A DNA stretch of 64,000 nucleotides from an uncultured Alphaproteobacteria bacterium (GTDB lineage: Bacteria; Pseudomonadota; Alphaproteobacteria; Rs-D84). The stretch is taken from contig CALXXY010000001.1 of assembly GCA_944392815.1 (NCBI GenBank), positions 5,141 to 69,140 on the forward strand, written 5' to 3'. The notes beneath the pieces were generated by a model. It had not been told where the DNA came from. It saw only the letters and a list, made by a program, of their open reading frames with translations, and did no database searches. The translations under genes and the position numbers were made by a program. Positions within the stretch are counted from its first letter, which is position 1. Every line of letters starts with the position of its first letter. Shown in pieces: positions 19,884 to 61,819 of the stretch.

Positions 19884-20987
19884 TTATATTAAGTATTGTA
19901 ATAATTTTTCTAACTGTGTATCATTTAATAGAATTATCTTGCACGCATTTGCAGCTTGTCTAGCAGATTTAGTAAAACCCGCATTAGATACAACAACACC
20001 ATAGTCACAATTATAAAAATCTCGTCCTGCATTTGCCTCTTGAACCGCTTTGTTACCTACAGGTTTGGAATATTTTTTACATTGAATAGCAAAAGATACG
20101 CCATTCTTTTTTGCTATCACGTCTGCACCCTGGTCCCCACTGGCTTTTGTAGTGCGCGCATTGAATCCCAGTGACTTTAATTTAATTGTTATGCTTTTTT
20201 CGTAATCTAATGGTGTAATATTTTTTTGCTTTAAATTTATATCAGGCATTTCCCACTTATTGACATACAAACTAAAAACAAGCTCTTTTACAACATTACA
20301 GGCATTTAAATACCTATATTCTTCCAAACGATTGTTTTCTAAAATGATATTTTTCTTTGCACAACTCTGGGTACTGATGAAAATAAGCTCACCTCTAATA
20401 TCATCTGTTTTATCTAGCATATTAAAATAAACATCTTCCATAATGCCAAAAGAACGATTATCTATTTTTATATCACTGTTGTCATCCGTCGCCACAAATA
20501 TGCAAAAATTGAAAAAGTCCGCTTCAAATACAGGATACAAATATATTTCCAAGGAATGGTCAGGGATATTTGAAAATAGTTTTTCGTAACTATTTTGTAA
20601 TGCTTCATTATAATAAGGTGTTGCGTAAATAGGCATCTCTCTAGTCAATACAACATTCTGAGCAAAATTATACAATTCGTTTATATAATTTTCATAATGA
20701 ATATATCCATAATCGTCTTCTGTTACTAACTGCAAAAATTTTGCATGCAGCGTGTTTTCATGTTGTTGAATTATATCATAAATTTGATTTACATATTCCT
20801 GTCTGTATGTGTTTACAATTTTTGTATGTTTTTTTAGTTTTTCTATCAGCATCCGTTTTTCATTTTGAATATTTTTTTGATTTTTAACATTTCTTGCATC
20901 GTACTCTTCTAGCTTCATTAACAAAAAAGCCACCAACAATATAGCGATAGCACTGACGACAACAATTATTCCAATACTGTTTAACAT
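19884..20987 (-). CDS. membrane-anchored protein with C-terminal Mrr_cat-type restriction endonuclease domain
   Basis: 367 aa. N-terminal TM helix (IGIIVVVSAIAILLVAFLLM), a coiled-coil segment and an unknown middle domain. The C-terminus GDQGADVIAKKNGVSFAIQCKKYSKPVGNKAVQEANAGRDFYNCDYGVVVSNAGFTKSA matches the Mrr N-terminal catalytic PD-(D/E)xK domain (D-x-D...QCK). The local DNA is strongly AT-rich compared with its neighbours. Confidence 0.7.
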   Translation of the reverse strand: MLNSIGIIVVVSAIAILLVAFLLMKLEEYDARNVKNQKNIQNEKRMLIEKLKKHTKIVNTYRQEYVNQIYDIIQQHENTLHAKFLQLVTEDDYGYIHYENYINELYNFAQNVVLTREMPIYATPYYNEALQNSYEKLFSNIPDHSLEIYLYPVFEADFFNFCIFVATDDNSDIKIDNRSFGIMEDVYFNMLDKTDDIRGELIFISTQSCAKKNIILENNRLEEYRYLNACNVVKELVFSLYVNKWEMPDINLKQKNITPLDYEKSITIKLKSLGFNARTTKASGDQGADVIAKKNGVSFAIQCKKYSKPVGNKAVQEANAGRDFYNCDYGVVVSNAGFTKSARQAANACKIILLNDTQLEKLLQYLI

Positions 20988-21146
20988 GTATTAATCCTTT
21001 TATATATTCTGTATTGTTTTAAAAAATCTGTAACTTTGATATCGCGTCCCTTTAACTCAATGCATACATATTTTAAAAACGCATACCGCATCATGCAGGA
21101 AACCAACTGGAGACAAAGCATAATGATAACACCAAAAATTTAAAGT

Positions 21147-21719
21147 TCATAACGTTCCCCTTTTATTGAATAAATCCGTTACGCCTGCAGCATCACCAAT
21201 CTGTTGTCCGTTCTTAAATCGCACAAAATGCCCCATGTTTTTCCCAAGTGCAATAAAAATGCCTTGTTTATAGTTGAAATACGTTCGTAAATTTTCAGAT
21301 GGCGCAGTTTTGTTTGTAAATATCTTTAATTTATTTTCATCGTGCGTCCAGTCATCATCGTTATGCCAATAGCCTTTCAGTTCTATAACCAGCATATTGT
21401 TTTCGTGTGTCCCGCGTGTATGCACTATTATATCCGGAAATACACGCCCTTTTTTCTCATCAGATGCCGCATAAGCATTATTACAGCCCAGATGTTTAAT
21501 TAGTTCTTCTCCAGAATTATCTGTGGCTTTGCCGTATTCACAGTCAACAGACAGGCAATCGTTATCATATCCATGTATATCCAATAGACGCTGTAAATAT
21601 CCTGCAATTCTAGATGCACACGTTCTTTCCAAACCGCCAATTTCAACAAGCTTTTTGTCGCGCTTATAGAATATTGCCACCGCGGTCTGTAATAGTTCAA
21701 ATATTGCTTCCGTGTTCAT
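21147..21719 (-). CDS. hypothetical protein, possible PD-(D/E)xK-fold nuclease-like protein
   Basis: 190 aa, encoded upstream of and co-directional with the Mrr_cat gene. FPDIIVH...VIELKGYW resembles the hhh-D ... hhh-E-x-K core. The assignment is tentative. Confidence 0.45.
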   Translation of the reverse strand: MNTEAIFELLQTAVAIFYKRDKKLVEIGGLERTCASRIAGYLQRLLDIHGYDNDCLSVDCEYGKATDNSGEELIKHLGCNNAYAASDEKKGRVFPDIIVHTRGTHENNMLVIELKGYWHNDDDWTHDENKLKIFTNKTAPSENLRTYFNYKQGIFIALGKNMGHFVRFKNGQQIGDAAGVTDLFNKRGTL

Positions 21720-22072: not shown

Positions 22073-22149
22073 TGGCGCGCCCAGAAGGATTCGAACCCTC
22101 AACCTTCTGATCCGTAGTCAGATGCTCTATCCAATTGAGCCATGGGCGC
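22073..22149 (-). tRNA. tRNA-Arg (anticodon ACG)
   Basis: Reverse complement reads GCGCCCA-TGGCTCAATTGGATAGAGCA-TCTGACTACGGATCAGA...GGTTCGAATCC...TGGGCGC-G-CCA. The cloverleaf has a 7-bp acceptor stem, the anticodon loop is CUACGGA and the CCA end is encoded. Confidence 0.9.
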
Positions 22150-24622: not shown

Positions 24623-24711
24623 AATGTGCCTTCCTTTCTTATGCTTGTTATGGTTCCCAAAGTACTGTGAACCTGTAATAATTGTTGCGGATTACGATAC
24701 AGATTGCAAGA

Positions 24712-24750
24712 AAAAACACCCCAGGAAAATCGTGTTTAATTTCCTGGGGC
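24712..24750 (-). terminator. rho-independent terminator downstream of the RelA/SpoT-like gene
   Basis: caccccaggaaa...tttcctgggg hairpin, followed on the minus strand by a T-run. Confidence 0.55.
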
Positions 24751-24760
24751 GGCGATTGTA

Positions 24761-26188
24761 TTATTTGTTCGTTTTTTTATAGTACCGCTGGACTTCGGTC
24801 ATAACAAAGTTGAACAATTTGCCCGCCAATGTGTCGGACGGTACGGTCCAGTCATGCTGGAAATACGGCATGGCCGCGACCAGAATAAACCGCGCCATGA
24901 AATGGAAAATCTCGCTTTCCTGGGCCTGGGTCAATTTGGCCGGGGCGTCTTTGATACGAAAAACTTCGTTTTCAATGGCGTTGTCCAATTTATCAACGAT
25001 GATGTCCAAAATTTTCGGCGGATAATACAGTTTGCACAATTTAGGAAACCCGTCAAACATGGATACATCTGTGCCCTGGCTGTACAAAATATTCCAACCG
25101 ACACGGTCAAATAAATCCTCCAGGCACTGGCAAATCATCAGATTGTATTGTTTAACGCCCATTTCCATAAAATCCGCCAATTTGCGTTCTATATCCGCAC
25201 TGGTACGCGCGGTTTTAGTGTTTTTGTTGTTTTCACGTTTACGCGAAACCTCGTAATTTCCGTGTGTTTGGCGTTCAAATTCGAAAAATGTGCGAACCTG
25301 GCAAATGATTTCCATGGGAACGACGTGGCCGTCTTTGCCGATATCGATTATTAATTTGGCGTCGCGATAATTACGCGGATTTTTCATATCGTAAAAATTA
25401 TCGCGCACAGATAAAATCCGGTCCGGCATCATGTCACACACGCGTTCAATAAATGTGCGGGCCTGGGGGATTAAATCAAACAGGCATTTCACACGCCAAA
25501 CGTCCTGCAGGCGCATGCGGGGACGTGGGACTTTGTCCAATTCACGCACCAATTCCACCGCGATTTTTTCGTGTCCAGAACCGATAATGGACAGCACTGT
25601 TTCGGACGGTGTGGAAATATAGCGTTCGTTTAATTTCGCGCGAATTTTATCGGCAACCGCACGCGCAGACGCCAAACGATCGTGCGATGCAATCACGCGG
25701 TACACTGTCGCGGCAACTTCGTCCACGTATGCGGCATAGTATTTGCCGGTCACTTTGTCCAATGCCCTGTCGATGCTTTTTTGTGCGCCGACAATAACCG
25801 TGACGATGGACGACACCGCCAGGTCAATTTTGTGCCCCGCCCCACTGGTAAAAAATTGATTACGCATGGGGTCTGCGTCCAAGCGGTGGTGCACAATGTA
25901 TGGCGACAATGGATTTATATCCGATACCTTGATCGGTTCGTCAATTGCGCTGTCGGTGGCATAATCATAGCGCATAACGGGCGCCTTGGGCGCACCAAAA
26001 CATTTGCCCAGGAAATAGAACACTTCGCGGAACCACAGCATACCATCGGAATATAATTCAGATAAATATGCGGCGGCTTCGTCATTAATGCGACCGGATT
26101 TGCGCGCCTGTTCAATGGTGGCCTGATTTTTCCTGTCCCGTTCGGCGGCCAGGTCGGCCGCGCTGCTTTCAGAATACGGTGTTATCAT
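24761..26188 (-). CDS. RelA/SpoT-synthetase-like (RSH nucleotidyltransferase) domain protein, no HD hydrolase domain
   Basis: 475 aa. Residues about 230-330 read WRVKCLFDL...DRILSVRD...NPRNYRDAKLIIDIG...PMEIICQVRTFFEFERQTH. This parallels the RSH synthetase motifs GRVKS, DxxGxR, PKxNGYQSLH and EIQIRTxxMHxWAExxH. Similarity was judged by eye. The gene is 13 nt downstream of lysS on the same strand. Confidence 0.5.
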   Translation of the reverse strand: MITPYSESSAADLAAERDRKNQATIEQARKSGRINDEAAAYLSELYSDGMLWFREVFYFLGKCFGAPKAPVMRYDYATDSAIDEPIKVSDINPLSPYIVHHRLDADPMRNQFFTSGAGHKIDLAVSSIVTVIVGAQKSIDRALDKVTGKYYAAYVDEVAATVYRVIASHDRLASARAVADKIRAKLNERYISTPSETVLSIIGSGHEKIAVELVRELDKVPRPRMRLQDVWRVKCLFDLIPQARTFIERVCDMMPDRILSVRDNFYDMKNPRNYRDAKLIIDIGKDGHVVPMEIICQVRTFFEFERQTHGNYEVSRKRENNKNTKTARTSADIERKLADFMEMGVKQYNLMICQCLEDLFDRVGWNILYSQGTDVSMFDGFPKLCKLYYPPKILDIIVDKLDNAIENEVFRIKDAPAKLTQAQESEIFHFMARFILVAAMPYFQHDWTVPSDTLAGKLFNFVMTEVQRYYKKTNK

Positions 26189-26200
26189 GGCATGCCCCCA

Positions 26201-27679
26201 TTATTTCATTATCGGAAATAATATAACGTCACGCAGTGTCGGGGCGTCCGCTATGATAGAAAAAAATCTGTCAATTCCCAACCCCAGGCCCGAAATCGGT
26301 GGCATACCGTGTTCCATGGCACGCAGGAAATCTTCGTCCAGGTCAAATGCCTCGTCATCGCCGGCGGCTTTGTTTTTCGCCTGCTCTTCGAACGCGGCAC
26401 GTTGGACAATTGGGTCGACCAATTCTGAATATGCCTTTATCAATTCGGCACCACAGACAATCAACTGGAATATATCTATGCGGCGATTGTCATCGTCGTT
26501 GCGACGCGCCAATGGTATCAAATATGCCGGATAGTTATATACAATTGTCGGCTGGATAATCTGGTCACGGATTTTGTGTTTGAACACATAGTCCACTATG
26601 GCCGGCACAGATTTCAGCGGTTCCATTTCGTCCGCGCCAAACATGCCGCCGGCAATCAACTGTTTTTTCAGGGCGTCGGTGTCGCGGAATTCCAAAATGT
26701 CAACACCCAGCAATTCATTCATGCGGGCCGTGTAATCGATTTCATCGTATTTGGTGAAATCCAATTTGGTGCCCTGGTATTCAATTTGTAATGTGCCGCG
26801 CAAATCCATGATGATTTTTTGAATCATATCCCATGAAAATTTAATATTGTCCTGATAATTCCAATATGCGGCGTACCATTCCAGCATGGTGAATTCCTGC
26901 AGGTGCATGGCGTCCATGCCTTCGTTGCGAAAATTTTTGCCCAATTCATACACGCGGTCAAATCCAGCGGCAATGGTTTGTTTCAAAAATAATTCCGGCG
27001 CAATACGCAGATAAAAATCAGCGTCCAACGCATTGTGATGCGTGATAAATGGGCGCGCGGCGGCACCACTGGCCACAACCTGCATTATCGGGGTTTCAAC
27101 CTCGGTAAAACCATTGGCGTTTAAATATTCGCGTATCAGGCGCAACATTTTAAAACGCATTTTCATCGTGCGACGTGTGTCTTCGTTGGCAATTATATCC
27201 AGATAGCGTTGACGATAACGCGTTTCCATATCCGTCAACCCGTGGAATTTTTCCGGCAACGGACGCAGGGCTTTTGATAAAATTTCATATTTTGCCACGC
27301 GCACAGTCAATTCGCCCGCGGTTGTATGGTATAATTCACCATCAATACCGATAAAATCGCCCAGGTCGACATTGGATTTCATGAATTTATATTGTTCTTC
27401 GCCCAATTCTTCGCGGGACATAGAAAACTGGATTTCGCCGTCAATATCATAAATGCGGCCGAACATCAATTTCCCCAACCACCGCAGTGCCGTGACGCGC
27501 CCCGCCAGGCGCACATGCGCGCCATCGGACAAATTGCGGGCGTCACAAATTTTGTGGCTGCGGTCAAATTTATCTTTCCAAACAACACCATCGCGGGCGC
27601 GGATATTTTCTGCCTTTTGCAGGCGCGCCTGTAATTCATTTGTCGATATTTTCGTGGTACTGTTTGCGTTTTCTGACAT
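26201..27679 (-). CDS. lysS: lysine--tRNA ligase (class II)
   Basis: 492 aa with an OB-fold N-domain and class II motifs, including GGLGIDR near the C-terminus. Confidence 0.9.
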   Translation of the reverse strand: MSENANSTTKISTNELQARLQKAENIRARDGVVWKDKFDRSHKICDARNLSDGAHVRLAGRVTALRWLGKLMFGRIYDIDGEIQFSMSREELGEEQYKFMKSNVDLGDFIGIDGELYHTTAGELTVRVAKYEILSKALRPLPEKFHGLTDMETRYRQRYLDIIANEDTRRTMKMRFKMLRLIREYLNANGFTEVETPIMQVVASGAAARPFITHHNALDADFYLRIAPELFLKQTIAAGFDRVYELGKNFRNEGMDAMHLQEFTMLEWYAAYWNYQDNIKFSWDMIQKIIMDLRGTLQIEYQGTKLDFTKYDEIDYTARMNELLGVDILEFRDTDALKKQLIAGGMFGADEMEPLKSVPAIVDYVFKHKIRDQIIQPTIVYNYPAYLIPLARRNDDDNRRIDIFQLIVCGAELIKAYSELVDPIVQRAAFEEQAKNKAAGDDEAFDLDEDFLRAMEHGMPPISGLGLGIDRFFSIIADAPTLRDVILFPIMK

Positions 27680-27824: not shown

Positions 27825-27901
27825 TGGTGCGAGCAAAGGGGCTCGAACCCTCGACCTCAACCTTGGCAAGGTTGCGCTCTAGCCAACTGAGCTACGCTCG
27901 C
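27825..27901 (-). tRNA. tRNA-Gly (anticodon GCC)
   Basis: Reverse complement reads GCGAGCG-TAGCTCAGTTGGCTAGAGC-GCAACCTTGCCAAGGTTG...GGTTCGAGCCC...CGCTCGC-A-CCA. The anticodon loop is UUGCCAA. Confidence 0.9.
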
Positions 27902-36211: not shown

Positions 36212-36244
36212 AAAACTGGGGTGCACCCCAGTTTTTATTTTTTA
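36211..36244. terminator. bidirectional rho-independent terminator (aaaaaactggggtgcaccccagttttt)
   Basis: Perfect GC-rich hairpin. Stop codons of both convergent genes lie at its edges. Confidence 0.7.
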
Positions 36245-38277
36245 CCCGACAATTCAGGATTTAATTTTGGATCATTATACATTTTATGCTGATAATACGC
36301 ACGTGGTTGGCGCGCACCATTCATAAAATCTACGAGCAGGTATTTTGTGGCCTCTAGCAATTCCACACGCTGCCGTTCCAGAACCTTTAATTTTTCGGTA
36401 CATTTTTTGCGATTTTCACGTTTGTGCGATTGTTCTTCCATATGATAAATCTTTAACGCCAAAATCGACAATCTGTCCAAAACCATGCCCAATGATTCCG
36501 TGTTCAATGGTGCTTTGAACGCGCCAGGCAACGCGGGCCCCAAAATTTGGATCATCGTTTCGTCCATTTTTTCTGCGAAATCGTTGCGCAATTGATTGTA
36601 ATTATCAATTTTATGTTTCGCGTCCGCAATGACTGAATCCGGCACATCGCGACGACGGGCTGTGTCTTCGGTATGCCACAGGAAATAATTCATCATATGA
36701 TTGGCGCGGGCATAACCCTCTAGCGTTGGGTATTCTGGTTTGGGCTGGGTTTCTTCGCGCCAATATTTGATGTCATCAATTGGTTCCTGTTTATGCCATT
36801 CAGCCGTCCAGGTACGCTGCATATCTGCAATTTTTGCAATGTATGCAAAATACGATGGGCGTGGTTGTAAACGAATTATTAACGGGTTGTCAGAAACTGT
36901 TTTCGCGGCATATTGCATTGTATCAATCACTTTGCCGACCGTCACTGGTGCGGACACGGTTTGTGCAATTGCATATTTGCTGTAATCCGGACGCACGGCA
37001 GAATAATCAAATGATTGTGAATACAGGCCGTCTGTTCTGCATTCGTCGGCGGCGGTTGGCCACGCGAAATCTGTAATAAAATCGTCCAGATTGAACCACC
37101 AATTCATTGTGGTGTTGCAATCGACTATGTGTCCAACGCATTTAAATAAATCGGGCGTTGCCGCCAATTCGCGCGGACGTTTCATTTCTTCGCGAATAAT
37201 TTGTGCGATACGTTTCACATTAAAATCAACTATGCAGCGATAGCGATTTGGGCAGCGTCGTTCGTCGTCTTTGTCCGGCCACCAGCAACGCTGGACACAT
37301 AACATACAACGGTTTTCAGAAAAAACTTTGCGTTGTGATGGATAATAAAAATCATCGTGTTCACAGCCATGCAAAATAACCGCCGGACAATCAACCGCCC
37401 GCGCCAAGTGCATCATGCCACCAATGGCCCCGACAAACATACGCGCATGCGTTAAAACGCCCGCGAATTCGCGCAAATTTAATTTGAACAACTGTTCCGC
37501 ACCACTTAACACAGGATCGTCAAAATCGCCAATCTGCAAAAATTCGTATTCGCCACGCAGTTCGTCAATTATGCCCTGGGCTATTTTTGGCAACAGATAT
37601 TTATATGGGCCATTGCCACCACATTTTATGACTATTTTTCCATCGGCAAATTTACCAAAATCTTTTTCATATTGCGTTAATCTGATTTCAGGTTTTACAT
37701 TTATTTCACCGGTTAAATCCATGCGATTTGCAACCCACTGCATCATTTGTCCACGCATAGGAAATCCGCCAAATAATTTCGTGAATGTGTTTCCCCACAC
37801 ATAGCAATTTTTTAAATATTCCAACGGTTTTAAATTAAATGTATATCCATCGCGCAGTTTTAATGGTTTGCCAATTAATTGCATGTTATAAAATATATAA
37901 AATACGTCCATGGTATGCTTGGCGCCCTTGACATTTTCGGGCACCAGGCGCCAATCGCATAAATACCAGCAAAAATCACAATTGCGAAACACGTGCCATT
38001 GGGGCACATATACCAACGGCCGCACACCTGTTTTTTTATAATACTCGCGCGCGACGCCGGCGAACACCAATCCGTCACCGACACCCTTGTTCAAATGATA
38101 GATGTCATGAATACCGTACTTTTTCGCCATGCGCAATGTCATAACCGGCACGCCCAATTTACGCATGCGATAAAATTGCCGCCAGAACAACAAATACCGC
38201 ACAGGCCGCCAACGAAACAGTAAATTACGCACTTTATAGTATGGAACCAGTAATTTTTTTATGAATTGTAATACCAT
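36235..38277 (-). CDS. large protein with central glycosyltransferase family 9 (heptosyltransferase-like) domain
   Basis: 680 aa. KIVIKCGGNGPYK...NLREFAGVLTHARMFVGAIGGMMHLARAVDCPAVILHG parallels the GT9 C-terminal motif (tL.eLaall..a.l.vgnDSGpmHlAaAlg.P.v.LfG). The flanking roughly 200-aa N-terminal and roughly 260-aa C-terminal regions are unassigned. Confidence 0.55.
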   Translation of the reverse strand: MVLQFIKKLLVPYYKVRNLLFRWRPVRYLLFWRQFYRMRKLGVPVMTLRMAKKYGIHDIYHLNKGVGDGLVFAGVAREYYKKTGVRPLVYVPQWHVFRNCDFCWYLCDWRLVPENVKGAKHTMDVFYIFYNMQLIGKPLKLRDGYTFNLKPLEYLKNCYVWGNTFTKLFGGFPMRGQMMQWVANRMDLTGEINVKPEIRLTQYEKDFGKFADGKIVIKCGGNGPYKYLLPKIAQGIIDELRGEYEFLQIGDFDDPVLSGAEQLFKLNLREFAGVLTHARMFVGAIGGMMHLARAVDCPAVILHGCEHDDFYYPSQRKVFSENRCMLCVQRCWWPDKDDERRCPNRYRCIVDFNVKRIAQIIREEMKRPRELAATPDLFKCVGHIVDCNTTMNWWFNLDDFITDFAWPTAADECRTDGLYSQSFDYSAVRPDYSKYAIAQTVSAPVTVGKVIDTMQYAAKTVSDNPLIIRLQPRPSYFAYIAKIADMQRTWTAEWHKQEPIDDIKYWREETQPKPEYPTLEGYARANHMMNYFLWHTEDTARRRDVPDSVIADAKHKIDNYNQLRNDFAEKMDETMIQILGPALPGAFKAPLNTESLGMVLDRLSILALKIYHMEEQSHKRENRKKCTEKLKVLERQRVELLEATKYLLVDFMNGARQPRAYYQHKMYNDPKLNPELSGKK

Positions 38278-59569: not shown

Positions 59570-61819
59570 ATGGCTGTAAAAATGAACGATTTTTTATTGG
59601 AATATTTCAAGCGAATGATTTTTCGCAGCATGTCAATTGAACAATTCGTTCATTATTGCGATTTCGTCAAGGCCGACGATATGGCCGGAAATATGAAGGA
59701 ATGGCGCGATACCCTGTTGGAAAAAAACGCGGCCGGCGAATTGGTCACTGACGCGGCCGGGCTGTACGTACGCAAAGATTATCCGGACCCGTTTGCCGGC
59801 GATTTTGAATTGGAACCCGCCGAGTGGGAAAAAATGTTTCGCGCGTTCAACAATGCTTTCCAGGAAATGGACGCGTATAAAAACAGTTTTAAATATGAAA
59901 AAAAGCCAACCGATTTCCTGAACAAATATTTTGGCAGCACTGGGCAATTGTTTTCGTATACCACTGCAAGCATAGCGGCCGAAACAAAAATTGCGGAATT
60001 AAAAAACATATTGGAAACGCATGCGTCGCAATTAAGACCCAAATTAACTGGATTTTTTAACGATGATTTTACATGGGACGATTTAATAACTGGGATTGCC
60101 GATAAAAAATACAATAAAAATCCATCGTTCCGTGAAAAAATGACCTCTATTGCAGAAGCGTTGGCCGCCGATACCCAGGTGACGGCAACGTCTGCGGTCT
60201 ATTCTGTGGTTGGCAGAAAACTGGATTTTTCTGCTATTCGCGATGGATTTGATGGTGGGCCAATTAACCCCGCCAAAATGACGCAATTTCAATTATCGTA
60301 TCGTGATTTATTGCGCGAATTGTACACCAATACCAAGGCATTCGAGTATTTTTCTGCACACGACCCAACCAAAATTTCCAAATTATTGAACGAGGCCAAA
60401 GGCCGCCTGGATTATAATGACACGAACAGCAAGGGATATATTTCCCCAAAACGGCCGGATACGTTAACCCTGCCCCAGCGTATATCTGAATGGTGGGACA
60501 AAACGTATTCCAATTATCTGGAAAAATATGTCAAATTGACGCCGGATCGTATGTTCATTTCGCTGCAGGCCAAGGCGATTTTCCAGGAAATTGACAAACT
60601 GCATTTAAATCCGGCCGATGGACTGGATAAAGTGTTGGAAAATACCGATAAAATTTCCGGCAAGTTAAAGGCAAAATATAAAAAGGCCGCGGATCATTTT
60701 GAATGGTTTACCAAAACTTTGACCGAATTAAAAAATACTATGGGCAAAGGCAAAGCGTTTGAAAAGGCCCTGTCGAACGGTCATTCTATGAACATGTTGG
60801 TTCAGCAAATTATTATCAAGGCCGTCAACGAAAACAAAATTGACGAGGCCAAAACCACCCTGGAAATATTGCCTGTGTTGCGGTATGCGTACACGACCAG
60901 TCGCATAATGGACGTATTTAATAAATCTGATTTGACGATTTTTTCAGACAAAAGTTATTCATGGAACACAAAAAATCCCGCCATGCAATTTATTACAAAC
61001 GCCATGGATTTGGGAATTAAAAAGGCATTCCAACTGGCTGGGTACGGCATTACCATGGCAGGGAACGCAATCAATCGCATCGGTACGAAATTCAACGGCA
61101 AAATGGGCAAAGATTTACGCGACGCCCGCAATGCCAAGATGGACGAATGGTCCCAACAGCGCAGCGATTTAGAATCCAACGTATCACGATACGAAACAGA
61201 ACGCAGTACAAAAAGTGCTGAATTACGCAGTTTGATTCGTGCTGGTAATTCGCCAATTCAACTGAAACGCGACATCAGCGGATACGAACGCAGACGCGAT
61301 TTGGCTTTGCAAAGTTTCAATCAAAGATTGGAAAAATTGACACAAATATGGGGAGTCATGACGTATACCCCCGGCGTCAACAGGGCGGACATAGATATCC
61401 TGGGGGATATTATTTCCAGATTGCGCGATGATGTTAATGCTGATATCGATCCCGCCCAGATTAGTGCCATTACCGATGTAAATATCCAGCGCGAAATAAA
61501 CCGCATGTTGGCACGTCGAAACAATTTCATACAAAATGCCGATGATTTGCGGGATTCCCAAACAAAGTACCAGGAATTGGTTAATGCCAAAAATGCAGTC
61601 AAGGCATATGATGAATTAATTGACAAGGCCAACGAAGATTTGGCCAACTGGGACAGTAATCACAAGGATAAATATGCTGAATTAATGGCGTATTGGGATT
61701 TGTGCAATTCTGGGTTTAATAAATCATGGTTTGGCAATCGCGACGCCCAACAGAAAAAATTCACGAAAAACATGGTGCCGTTGGTCCAGGCACGTTTGGA
61801 CGCATATCGCGTGGCCTGA
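59570..61819 (+). CDS. large orphan protein (749 aa), predominantly alpha-helical/coiled-coil, no signal peptide or TM
   Basis: Long uninterrupted ORF with typical coding composition and no recognisable catalytic motifs. Confidence 0.6.
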   Translation: MAVKMNDFLLEYFKRMIFRSMSIEQFVHYCDFVKADDMAGNMKEWRDTLLEKNAAGELVTDAAGLYVRKDYPDPFAGDFELEPAEWEKMFRAFNNAFQEMDAYKNSFKYEKKPTDFLNKYFGSTGQLFSYTTASIAAETKIAELKNILETHASQLRPKLTGFFNDDFTWDDLITGIADKKYNKNPSFREKMTSIAEALAADTQVTATSAVYSVVGRKLDFSAIRDGFDGGPINPAKMTQFQLSYRDLLRELYTNTKAFEYFSAHDPTKISKLLNEAKGRLDYNDTNSKGYISPKRPDTLTLPQRISEWWDKTYSNYLEKYVKLTPDRMFISLQAKAIFQEIDKLHLNPADGLDKVLENTDKISGKLKAKYKKAADHFEWFTKTLTELKNTMGKGKAFEKALSNGHSMNMLVQQIIIKAVNENKIDEAKTTLEILPVLRYAYTTSRIMDVFNKSDLTIFSDKSYSWNTKNPAMQFITNAMDLGIKKAFQLAGYGITMAGNAINRIGTKFNGKMGKDLRDARNAKMDEWSQQRSDLESNVSRYETERSTKSAELRSLIRAGNSPIQLKRDISGYERRRDLALQSFNQRLEKLTQIWGVMTYTPGVNRADIDILGDIISRLRDDVNADIDPAQISAITDVNIQREINRMLARRNNFIQNADDLRDSQTKYQELVNAKNAVKAYDELIDKANEDLANWDSNHKDKYAELMAYWDLCNSGFNKSWFGNRDAQQKKFTKNMVPLVQARLDAYRVA

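Follow-up and report, generated by a model that had tools for sequence, protein, structure and literature searches.

The lysS-X locus

The DNA analysed here, referred to below as the window, is a stretch of 64,000 nucleotides from an uncultured alphaproteobacterium of the lineage Rs-D84 (assembly GCA_944392815.1, contig CALXXY010000001.1, positions 5,141 to 69,140 of the forward strand). According to the list of open reading frames (ORFs), its interval 24761-27679 consists of two minus-strand genes: lysS, encoding a class II lysine--tRNA ligase (LysRS), and behind it a gene, called X in this text, for a protein of 475 amino acids. RSH synthetases, the synthetases of the RelA/SpoT homologue superfamily, are nucleotide pyrophosphokinases. 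As judged from sequence comparison and from structure models, X belongs to a deeply diverged branch of the RSH type and is probably an active housekeeping pyrophosphokinase.

The identity of lysS is clear from the matches of its product to the NCBIfam models NF001756 (549 bits) and TIGR00499 (511 bits), and from the Pfam domains tRNA-synt_2 and tRNA_anti-codon, the latter being the oligonucleotide/oligosaccharide-binding (OB) anticodon domain. Between the two genes the sequence reads TAA tgggggcatgcc ATG and holds a G-rich, Shine-Dalgarno-like element. Downstream of X lies an intrinsic terminator with a 12-bp stem followed by a U-tract, whose hairpin has a folding energy of -22.6 kcal/mol (z = -4.63; none of 200 shuffled sequences was equally stable). 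The initial annotation of this stretch had described a 475-aa reading frame next to lysS on the same strand, with a terminator of its own and a 13-nt gap to lysS; frame and terminator are as described, and direct sequence reading gives a gap of 12 nt. The coordinates of all features discussed are collected in Table 1.

Fold and remote homology

RSH synthetases have a five-stranded mixed β-sheet with helices on its flanks. The AlphaFold 2 (AF2) model of X (pLDDT, the predicted local distance difference test score, 82; pTM, the predicted template modelling score, 0.78) was compared with the Protein Data Bank (PDB) by Foldseek. The top 50 matches were all RSH chains of the SYNTH or toxSYNTH type, including SAS1 and SAS2 of Bacillus subtilis, RelP, CapRel, FaRel2, an exported small alarmone synthetase (SAS), Rel and SpoT, with a probability of ~1.0 for most of them, E ~1e-3 and ~150 aligned columns, and every non-RSH match of the full-length model in the PDB was no better than E ~0.1. 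A second AF2 model, made for a distant subfamily with ~20-25% core identity to X (pLDDT 88.9), found CapRel, RelP, RelQ, Tas1, Rel and RelA as its best Foldseek matches, RSH proteins accounting for all of the top 13 and for most of the top 29.

Sequence comparison depends on how the protein is presented to the search programs. In the PDB sequences, phmmer and the full-length profile found only globin or light-harvesting complex (LHC) matches at chance level (E = 1), and the weak globin similarity of the N-terminus of X was set aside as chance (E = 1). The hhalign comparison of a full-length, low-diversity alignment (A1) with the RelQ trio also returned nothing, because the profile is shallow (Neff, the effective number of sequences, is 1.7) and because an insert interrupts the domain. 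Alignment A3 joins residues 120-150 to residues 220-330 in 22 diverse family members, and its profile matched only small alarmone synthetases in the whole PDB: YwaC/SAS2 (E = 5.6e-6), YjbM/SAS1 (4e-5), 3L9D (1e-3), 2BE3 (2.5e-3) and RelP (~1e-2), the exported SAS being non-significant (E 1.9). With the RelQ trio, hhalign gave A3 a probability of 88% (E = 3e-6); the RelQ query showed no visible mismatch to PDB 5DED across residues 2-211. When the excised cores were searched against Pfam, PF04607 was the sole recurrent family, matched by seven of the 22 at E <= 1 (best 1.6e-4), X's own insert-excised core giving no PF04607 match. On the evidence of profiles and models together, the RSH synthetase resemblance of X is real but remote, and the block that the initial annotation had singled out as RSH-like stands beyond chance (Foldseek on both models; A3 profile, E 5.6e-6).

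Domain architecture

The protein can be divided into six segments (Table 1). The first comprises N-terminal helices, which are common to the distant subfamily, and an extra β region, and includes an invariant HRLDxDPMRNQFF loop. Since a helical insert splits it, the RSH domain already begins near residue 120, and further upstream should the N-terminal helices be included; the unrelated N-terminal extension of some 230 residues previously proposed is therefore wrong. The β1-α2 element proper (SSIVTVIVGAQKSIDRALDK, residues 126-145) aligns with GRVK...S...K of RelQ and with YwaC, and its residues G134-A135-Q136-K137, R141 and K145 form the putative triphosphate-binding element. The family-specific insert that follows is covered by AF2 helices at 149-218; it is short in the natural homologue P0123 and almost absent in P0128, and its removal from family cores restores detectable similarity to SAS enzymes and PF04607. 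The catalytic core begins with β2 (RLQDVWRVKCLFD, residues 226-238), and its key residues are D229, R232, K234, R272-N-Y274-R275-D276-x-K278, E293, I295, Q297, H309 and Y312-E313.

Behind the core, none of the 23 linker positions is invariant, pLDDT falls below 50 at residues 325-330 and the length of the linker varies in the alignment. The C-terminal domain is invariant at 41 of its 132 positions (31%), comparable to the rest of X, only the 23-aa linker being variable. AF2 places no β-strand past residue 298, helices only. SYNTH domains usually carry a helical appendage at the C-terminus (PMC11782079). In the full-length profile search, no protein outside the X family matched any part of the profile. 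Pfam finds no HD hydrolase domain in X, as the initial annotation had stated, nor any other domain.

Some family members depart from this plan. P0124 (629 aa) and P0130 (654 aa) carry N-terminal extensions of ~130-190 aa that are rich in Lys, Pro, Ser and Arg and look disordered, and their internal insert is longer. P0170 (424 aa), a probably eukaryotic protein from the search of cluster representatives, is a fusion of an RSH-like core that shows X-family motifs (GYRDA...CEIQCQAR...HHVVYE) and a globin domain at the C-terminus (Pfam 5.7e-22), its match to the family profile being marginal (E 4.5e-4).

Table 1. Features of the lysS-X locus and segments of X (window coordinates; all on the minus strand)
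Feature	Position	Strand	Basis or detail
tRNA-Gly(GCC), upstream of lysS	27825-27901	(-)	ARAGORN + Rfam
Terminator-like hairpin after tRNA-Gly(GCC)	27738-27718	(-)	terminator scan
lysS, class II lysine--tRNA ligase, 492 aa, first gene of the pair	26201..27679	(-)	
lysS-X spacer, 12 nt, tgggggcatgcc	26189..26200	(-)	direct sequence reading
X, divergent RSH-synthetase-like protein, 475 aa	24761..26188	(-)	stop codon included
X residues 1-119: three N-terminal helices (8-64) and extra β region (72-102)	25832..26188	(-)	AF2
X residues 120-150: RSH strand β1 and helix α2	25739..25831	(-)	hmmsearch/hhalign to RelQ, YwaC
X residues 151-219: family-specific helical insert between α2 and β2, ~70 aa	25532..25738	(-)	
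X residues 220-320: RSH catalytic core β2-β5 and next helix	25229..25531	(-)	alignment to SAS1, SAS2
X residues 321-343: variable low-confidence linker	25160..25228	(-)	
X residues 344-475: conserved all-helical C-terminal domain	24764..25159	(-)	
Intrinsic terminator 3' of X	24711..24751	(-)	hairpin 24751-24717, U-tract 24716-24711
Cold-shock-domain (CSD) protein gene, 114 aa	24278..24622	(-)	Pfam CSD 6e-15

Active-site comparison

The active site of X was compared with those of RelP and RelQ (PMC5794853), FaRel2 (PMC11782079) and CapRel (PMC9712102), whose structures define the residue roles, and conservation was scored over the 22 family cores, down to ~20% identity (Table 2). The alignment is gapless around the catalytic glutamate: E293 corresponds to the catalytic Glu, I295 to the RSH Gln, Q297 to the RSH Arg and H309 to the RSH His, and Glu and His lie 16 residues apart in X just as they do in RelQ and the distant subfamily. 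Both acidic residues, whose absence would have spoken against an RSH enzyme, are present and invariant in all 22 cores. In the terms of the motif R-x-K-x3-S-x3-K-x2-R, K137 and K145 are kept, A135 and R141 replace the first Arg and the Ser, and the position of the last Arg is taken by G148, with K149 adjacent. D276 and K278 in the G-loop are at least 90% conserved across both subfamilies.

This register changes the reading of two of the motifs proposed initially. The sequence 'RVK' (R232-V-K234) is not the ATP-binding RxK motif of β1; it lies on β2 at the RSH 'DxxGxR' motif, and the true β1 motif is G134-A-Q-K137. The block 'EIxxQVRT' (EIICQVRT) is offset from the RSH 'ExQxRT': its E293 falls on the catalytic Glu, two residues off the register that an apparent match of QVRT with QIRT would give. 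The third, 'P-basic-N-Y', is P271-R272-N273-Y274 and does form the G-loop.

Table 2. Correspondence of active-site residues between known RSH synthetases and X
Role	Known enzymes	X	Conservation in the X family
Mg2+ ligand (β2)	RelQ D72 / RelP D107	D229	invariant
Mg2+ ligand/catalytic (β5)	RelQ E139 / RelP E174	E293	invariant
β1 lysine, phosphates	RelQ K48	K137	invariant
α2 lysine, phosphates	RelQ K56	K145	at least 90%
G-loop tyrosine, acceptor base	RelQ Y116 / RelP Y151	Y274	invariant
Donor ribose histidine	RelQ H155 / RelP H190	H309	invariant
α-Phosphate serine	RelQ S52	R141	at least 90%
Adenine stack (β1)	RelQ R46 / RelP R78 / FaRel2 R64 / CapRel R79	A135	variable in distant subfamily
β2 glycine	FaRel2 G93	R232	invariant Arg, two residues before K234
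Adenine stack (β2)	RelQ R77 / RelP R112 / FaRel2 R95 / CapRel R116	K234	Ser/Thr in distant subfamily
ExQ glutamine	FaRel2 Q147	I295	Gln retained in distant subfamily
ExQxR arginine	RelQ R143	Q297	changed
GYRSxH	RelQ 115-120	N-Y-R-D-x-K	changed

Taken over the family alignment, strong constraint acts on the residues that bind the metal and the triphosphate and on the Tyr that stacks the acceptor, and the donor-base pocket appears to have been rebuilt. The G-loop contains five basic residues (R262, K269, R272, R275 and K278). Alarmone synthetases have a positive acceptor patch (PMC11782079), which the basic G-loop of X would fit, and the isoelectric point (pI) ranges from 5.7 to 8.0 across the X family, compared with 6.6 for RelQ.

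Distribution, conservation and synteny

Relatives of X were sought by a scan of the GTDB species representatives, which found a homologue in 260 of them, all of one clade; the best match (99% identity) is that of Candidatus Enterousia excrementavium, the species to which the window belongs. Enterousia, of the alphaproteobacterial order Rs-D84, is an uncultured gut lineage believed to rely on other cells; its genomes are smaller than 1 Mb and hold ~850-900 genes (PMC12306168). The genomes with X include a circular metagenome-assembled genome of 958,618 bp (OZ007020.1). A protein database contained 601 homologues of X, of which the best 120 (72-99% identity, 438-486 aa) have no functional annotation or Pfam domain. 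Among 1.84 billion cluster representatives only 50 clusters match the X family, which makes it a narrow family. This branch is confined to uncultured, reduced-genome, gut-associated Alphaproteobacteria, namely the order Rs-D84 / Ca. Enterousia and relatives.

Within the clade the link to lysS is absolute. The gene lies directly downstream of lysS in 86 of 86 loci, and in all 85 with a measurable gap the spacer is 1-29 nt long, mostly with a G-rich ribosome-binding element. A CSD protein gene follows just downstream of X in ~70 of the 86 loci, the lysS-X-csp block being kept together and the outer flanks varying between lineages. The identity of X across the species of the clade (69-99%) is close to that of LysRS (65-98%), so that X evolves about as slowly as LysRS. 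By its occurrence in 260 species, its fixed synteny and its LysRS-like identity range, X bears the marks of a vertically inherited core gene and not of a mobile toxin or defence gene.

Outside the Enterousia clade the linkage is not kept, so that of the initial interest in the lysS connection only the clade-wide part holds, and the functional meaning of the link becomes uncertain because it stops there. Six distant family members whose loci were inspected are not beside lysS: P0126 and P0122 are located after ruvB, P0125 lies upstream of a U32-peptidase gene, P0163 is convergent with fmt, P0171 is divergent from a tRNA_edit/YbaK-like gene, and P0200 has a class II aminoacyl-tRNA synthetase (aaRS) gene 4 kb off. 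The U32 peptidase family includes RNA hydroxylases. There is a faint theme of tRNA and aminoacyl-tRNA handling in these neighbourhoods, which is no evidence by itself since translation genes make up a large share of such small genomes. On the outgroup contig L007, a 117-aa ORF with a CdiA_C Pfam match lies between ruvB and P0126 (5379-5732, plus strand); CdiA_C is the C-terminal region of contact-dependent inhibition toxins.

The LysRS orthologues of the loci compared (L011-L090) are largely bimodal in their identity to the LysRS of the window, mostly ~70-76% or ~84-98%, with no correspondence between these classes and how similar the neighbouring X, tgt or CSD genes are: X and LysRS of L012 are 92% and 94% identical to those of the window, and those of L013 90% and 76%. 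The pattern points to replacement of lysS alleles, or to recombination whose breakpoint falls where lysS meets X. Near-identical X genes accompany both of the divergent lysS allele classes, which argues against a tightly co-adapted LysRS-X complex.

Proposed activity

The comparisons above show the fold of X, its remote homology, the conservation of its residues, its synteny and its status as a core gene, and we infer catalysis, donor and acceptor. X would be an active Mg2+-dependent transferase in which D229 and E293 would hold the metal, K137, R141 and K145 would hold the triphosphate of a nucleoside triphosphate (NTP) donor, H309 would contact the donor ribose and the acceptor base would stack on Y274 of the basic G-loop, the β,γ-pyrophosphate of the NTP being moved to the 3'-OH of the acceptor. 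With A135, R232/K234 and I295 in place of Arg, Gly/Arg and Gln, the donor-base pocket would be remodelled, so that donor recognition, and possibly donor identity, would be unlike those of known RSH enzymes. The enzyme would be constitutive, with a housekeeping or regulatory role, and would be co-transcribed and probably translationally coupled with LysRS. A purine nucleotide giving an alarmone-type product is slightly favoured as acceptor over a tRNA or RNA 3' end, because the G-loop is basic and the pI of the family is like that of RelQ.

X was compared with the closest known systems. RelQ/SAS1 (YjbM) and RelP/SAS2 (YwaC), represented by PDB entries 5DED, 5F2V, 6FGK and 6EWZ, are the best sequence-profile and fold matches of X and share with it the element order β1-α2-β2-α3-β3-G-loop-β4-β5-α4, the Mg ligands, the β1 and α2 lysines, the G-loop Tyr and the ribose His, as well as the absence of an HD domain, a helical C-terminal appendage and a non-toxic, chromosomal housekeeping context. 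Housekeeping enzymes of this type have a single SYNTH domain of ~200-250 aa and a helical C-terminal bundle for oligomerisation. In contrast to these enzymes of ~210-230 aa, X has 475 aa, with the ~70-aa α2-β2 insert, the extra N-terminal β region and the C-terminal domain of 130 aa; its adenine-stacking Arg pair and ExQ Gln are replaced, GYRSxH has become NYRDxK, and it falls below all curated RSH hidden Markov model (HMM) thresholds. SAS enzymes occur mainly in Firmicutes and other groups, whereas X occurs only in Rs-D84-type Alphaproteobacteria. The long RSH proteins (Rel, RelA, SpoT/Rsh) share the SYNTH fold and are weaker structural matches; X lacks their HD, TGS, zinc-finger (ZFD) and ACT/RRM domains by Pfam, and its flanking domains are unrelated to theirs.

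Several observations weigh against the reading of X as an active RSH-type enzyme. The natural sequence of X has no Pfam match even at E <= 0.1, including PF04607, the family that had been named as the search target, and no meaningful match in NCBIfam, PADLOC or PHROGs. X escapes the curated HMMs tried because its domain is split by the insertion and its donor pocket is rebuilt. Foldseek gives modest E-values (~1e-3), with TM-scores on the target of 0.35-0.49, and the excision of the insert in A3 was the analyst's choice, although natural homologues with a short insert (P0123 and P0128) support it. Replacement of both adenine-stacking Arg residues and of the ExQ Gln may mean inactivity or a different transfer, and the large, highly conserved accessory domains point to a macromolecular partner and not to an enzyme of free nucleotides. 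Finally, a canonical Rsh/SpoT in Enterousia, which bears directly on an alarmone role, is not mentioned in the genome paper (PMC12306168).

The genomic context adds little to this balance. Searches with RelQ and family HMMs found no second RSH-like gene in the window, and a motif search found no rpoZ there, the window being only ~7% of the genome; rpoZ is the usual neighbour of rsh. Within that ~7%, there is neither a canonical Rsh/SpoT nor an alarmone hydrolase. No relevant publication came up when the literature was searched for SAS in combination with lysyl-tRNA synthetase.

Alternative explanations

It is possible, though unlikely, that X instead acts on the 3' end of a tRNA, for example tRNA-Lys, or of another RNA, by pyrophosphorylation or some other modification, as FaRel2 and CapRel do, in the form of a regulated, LysRS-coupled housekeeping activity. 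The tight lysS-X operon, universal in the Enterousia clade, would suit this role, but the outgroups have no lysS linkage and have ruvB upstream instead. Distant homologues lie beside tRNA_edit/YbaK-like, fmt and U32 peptidase genes, whose products handle tRNA or modify RNA, yet translation genes are so abundant in genomes of ~900 genes that these neighbourhoods may be due to chance. RSH action on the CCA end of tRNA has a precedent; such pyrophosphorylation is however toxic, since it blocks aminoacylation (PMC11782079), and fits ill with a constitutive core gene that has no antitoxin or hydrolase partner. CapRel is the best PDB match of the distant-subfamily model, and the large conserved accessory domains might bind a macromolecule; these regions are nevertheless acidic to neutral and not basic, and the G-loop is rich in basic residues like that of alarmone synthetases, unlike that of FaRel2 (PMC11782079).

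A more far-reaching proposal, which we consider distinctly unlikely, is that X defines a new deep branch of the RSH superfamily whose rebuilt donor pocket serves to make an RSH product not yet described, with a non-ATP donor, for example, or by modification of Lys-tRNA, tRNA-Lys or a LysRS-derived nucleotide (Ap4A), and that X is an essential device for growth control or translation coupling in these gut Alphaproteobacteria of ~0.9 Mb, which depend obligately on a host or community; it might then be the only RSH-type enzyme they have.

It is improbable that X is a catalytically dead, RSH-derived pseudoenzyme acting as a structural or regulatory partner, for instance of LysRS or of the ribosome. 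Three donor-adenine contacts of RelP and FaRel2 are lost (A135, K234 and I295), conservation is very high over the whole length, the non-catalytic domains included, and the lysS-X spacer, being short and conserved, points to translational coupling that would match expression to that of LysRS. Against this, D229, E293, K137, Y274 and H309 are invariant at ~20% identity, as is typical of retained catalysis, and near-identical X occurs with either of the two lysS allele classes.

The proposal that X is a toxic SAS (toxSAS), or that it resembles CapRel as a fused toxin-antitoxin or defence protein in which the C-terminal domain would act in cis as antitoxin or sensor, was raised by the initial annotation and now seems highly improbable. 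What speaks for it is the RSH synthetase-type core without an HD domain, the presence of CapRel and FaRel2 among the structural matches and the large C-terminal extension. CapRel (7ZTB, 9ERV) and FaRel2 (8PU1) have the toxSYNTH/RSH core in common with X, and CapRel, the top structural match of the distant subfamily, is likewise a single polypeptide with a C-terminal extension. Its antitoxin, however, is a pseudo-ZFD, a three-stranded antiparallel β-sheet with a helix, whose YXXY motif blocks the ATP site, and its sensor domain, hypervariable as in an arms race, is its least conserved part (PMC9712102). The C-terminus of X is all-helical and highly conserved (31% invariant positions), with no β-strand and no YXXY in residues 344-475. 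Unlike CapRel and FaRel2, X has neither a pseudo-ZFD nor an antitoxin gene, its accessory domains are conserved and the donor adenine arginines (CapRel R79/R116, FaRel2 R64/R95) are missing. PADLOC was negative, and X is a slowly evolving, vertically inherited core gene of 260 species with a LysRS-like range of identity, not a member of a mobile defence island. It has housekeeping flanks and no conserved small, antitoxin-like partner ORF, its neighbours being lysS and, past the terminator, the CSD gene. The toxSAS modules (FaRel, FaRel2, PhRel, PhRel2) differ from this in their conserved bi- or tricistronic layout, which includes a small cognate antitoxin or small alarmone hydrolase (SAH) gene, and in their patchy occurrence with mobile elements or defence genes. 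The (pp)pApp synthetases Tas1 (6OX6) and FaRel share the RSH core with X, and the model of the distant subfamily matches Tas1 at E = 0.05. Tas1 is a monomer whose C-terminal domain is small and helical (PMC11782079). It is a secreted effector of a type VI secretion system and has an immunity protein, and FaRel belongs to a tricistronic toxin-antitoxin locus, whereas X is a core cytoplasmic gene product with no secretion or immunity context.

That the RSH resemblance is a chance motif match in a protein of unrelated fold is barely credible: the natural sequence has no Pfam, NCBIfam or PDB sequence match and the first full-length hhalign was empty, but two independent AF2 models converge on RSH domains, the profile matches are exclusively SAS chains with E down to 5.6e-6, and the register is consistent over five motifs with identical E-to-H spacing.

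Neighbouring genes and other features of the window

The genes around X in the window are housekeeping genes: tgt, thymidine kinase, an M48 protease, alaS, ftsH, RNase J, groEL and PBP1. The terminator of X lies between X and the CSD gene, which is a separate transcription unit; the CSD protein ends in a C-terminal tail of ~50 aa rich in Arg and Glu (RRFQERRAERRRAIEDRKQREEKSERR...). On the other side, the terminator-like hairpin behind tRNA-Gly(GCC) ends only ~40 nt ahead of the lysS ATG. Since this leaves little space for a lysS promoter of its own, the lysS-X pair may be transcribed from a very compact promoter or by polymerase reading through from the tRNA gene. Rfam shows only the tRNA-Gly upstream of lysS, and no T-box or riboswitch leader.

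Three further regions of the window attract attention. Beside tRNA-Arg(ACG) (22073-22149) there is a low-GC islet at 19884-21719 on the minus strand, its GC content being 0.345 compared with ~0.47 in the window as a whole. It encodes a protein of 367 aa that ends in an Mrr-type restriction endonuclease domain (Pfam 3.4e-23), contains a 190-aa ORF with no Pfam match, and looks like a small island integrated at a tRNA gene. In an otherwise housekeeping region, a 749-aa ORF at 59570-61819 on the plus strand has no Pfam match at E <= 1e-3. The 680-aa protein encoded at 36235-38277 on the minus strand is an unusual fusion, with a weak heptosyltransferase (Glyco_transf_9) match and a C-terminal DUF4254 domain (Pfam 1.2e-41).

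Significance

The HMM screens of the RSH superfamily classify 30 subfamilies of small synthetases (bioRxiv 10.1101/575399). The X family apparently lies outside the current catalogues of the superfamily and, as it goes unseen by the curated HMMs tried, these catalogues may be incomplete. X is an architecturally distinct RSH variant, previously unannotated, and its study removes a false lead, that of a defence or toxin module. In genomes as small as these, a retained gene is usually important, and X is among the most conserved "hypothetical" genes of a lineage with ~850-900 genes, fixed in an aaRS operon. Its product would tell whether minimal gut symbionts keep some form of nucleotide second-messenger or tRNA-end signalling, and also to what extent the RSH active site tolerates remodelling without loss of function.

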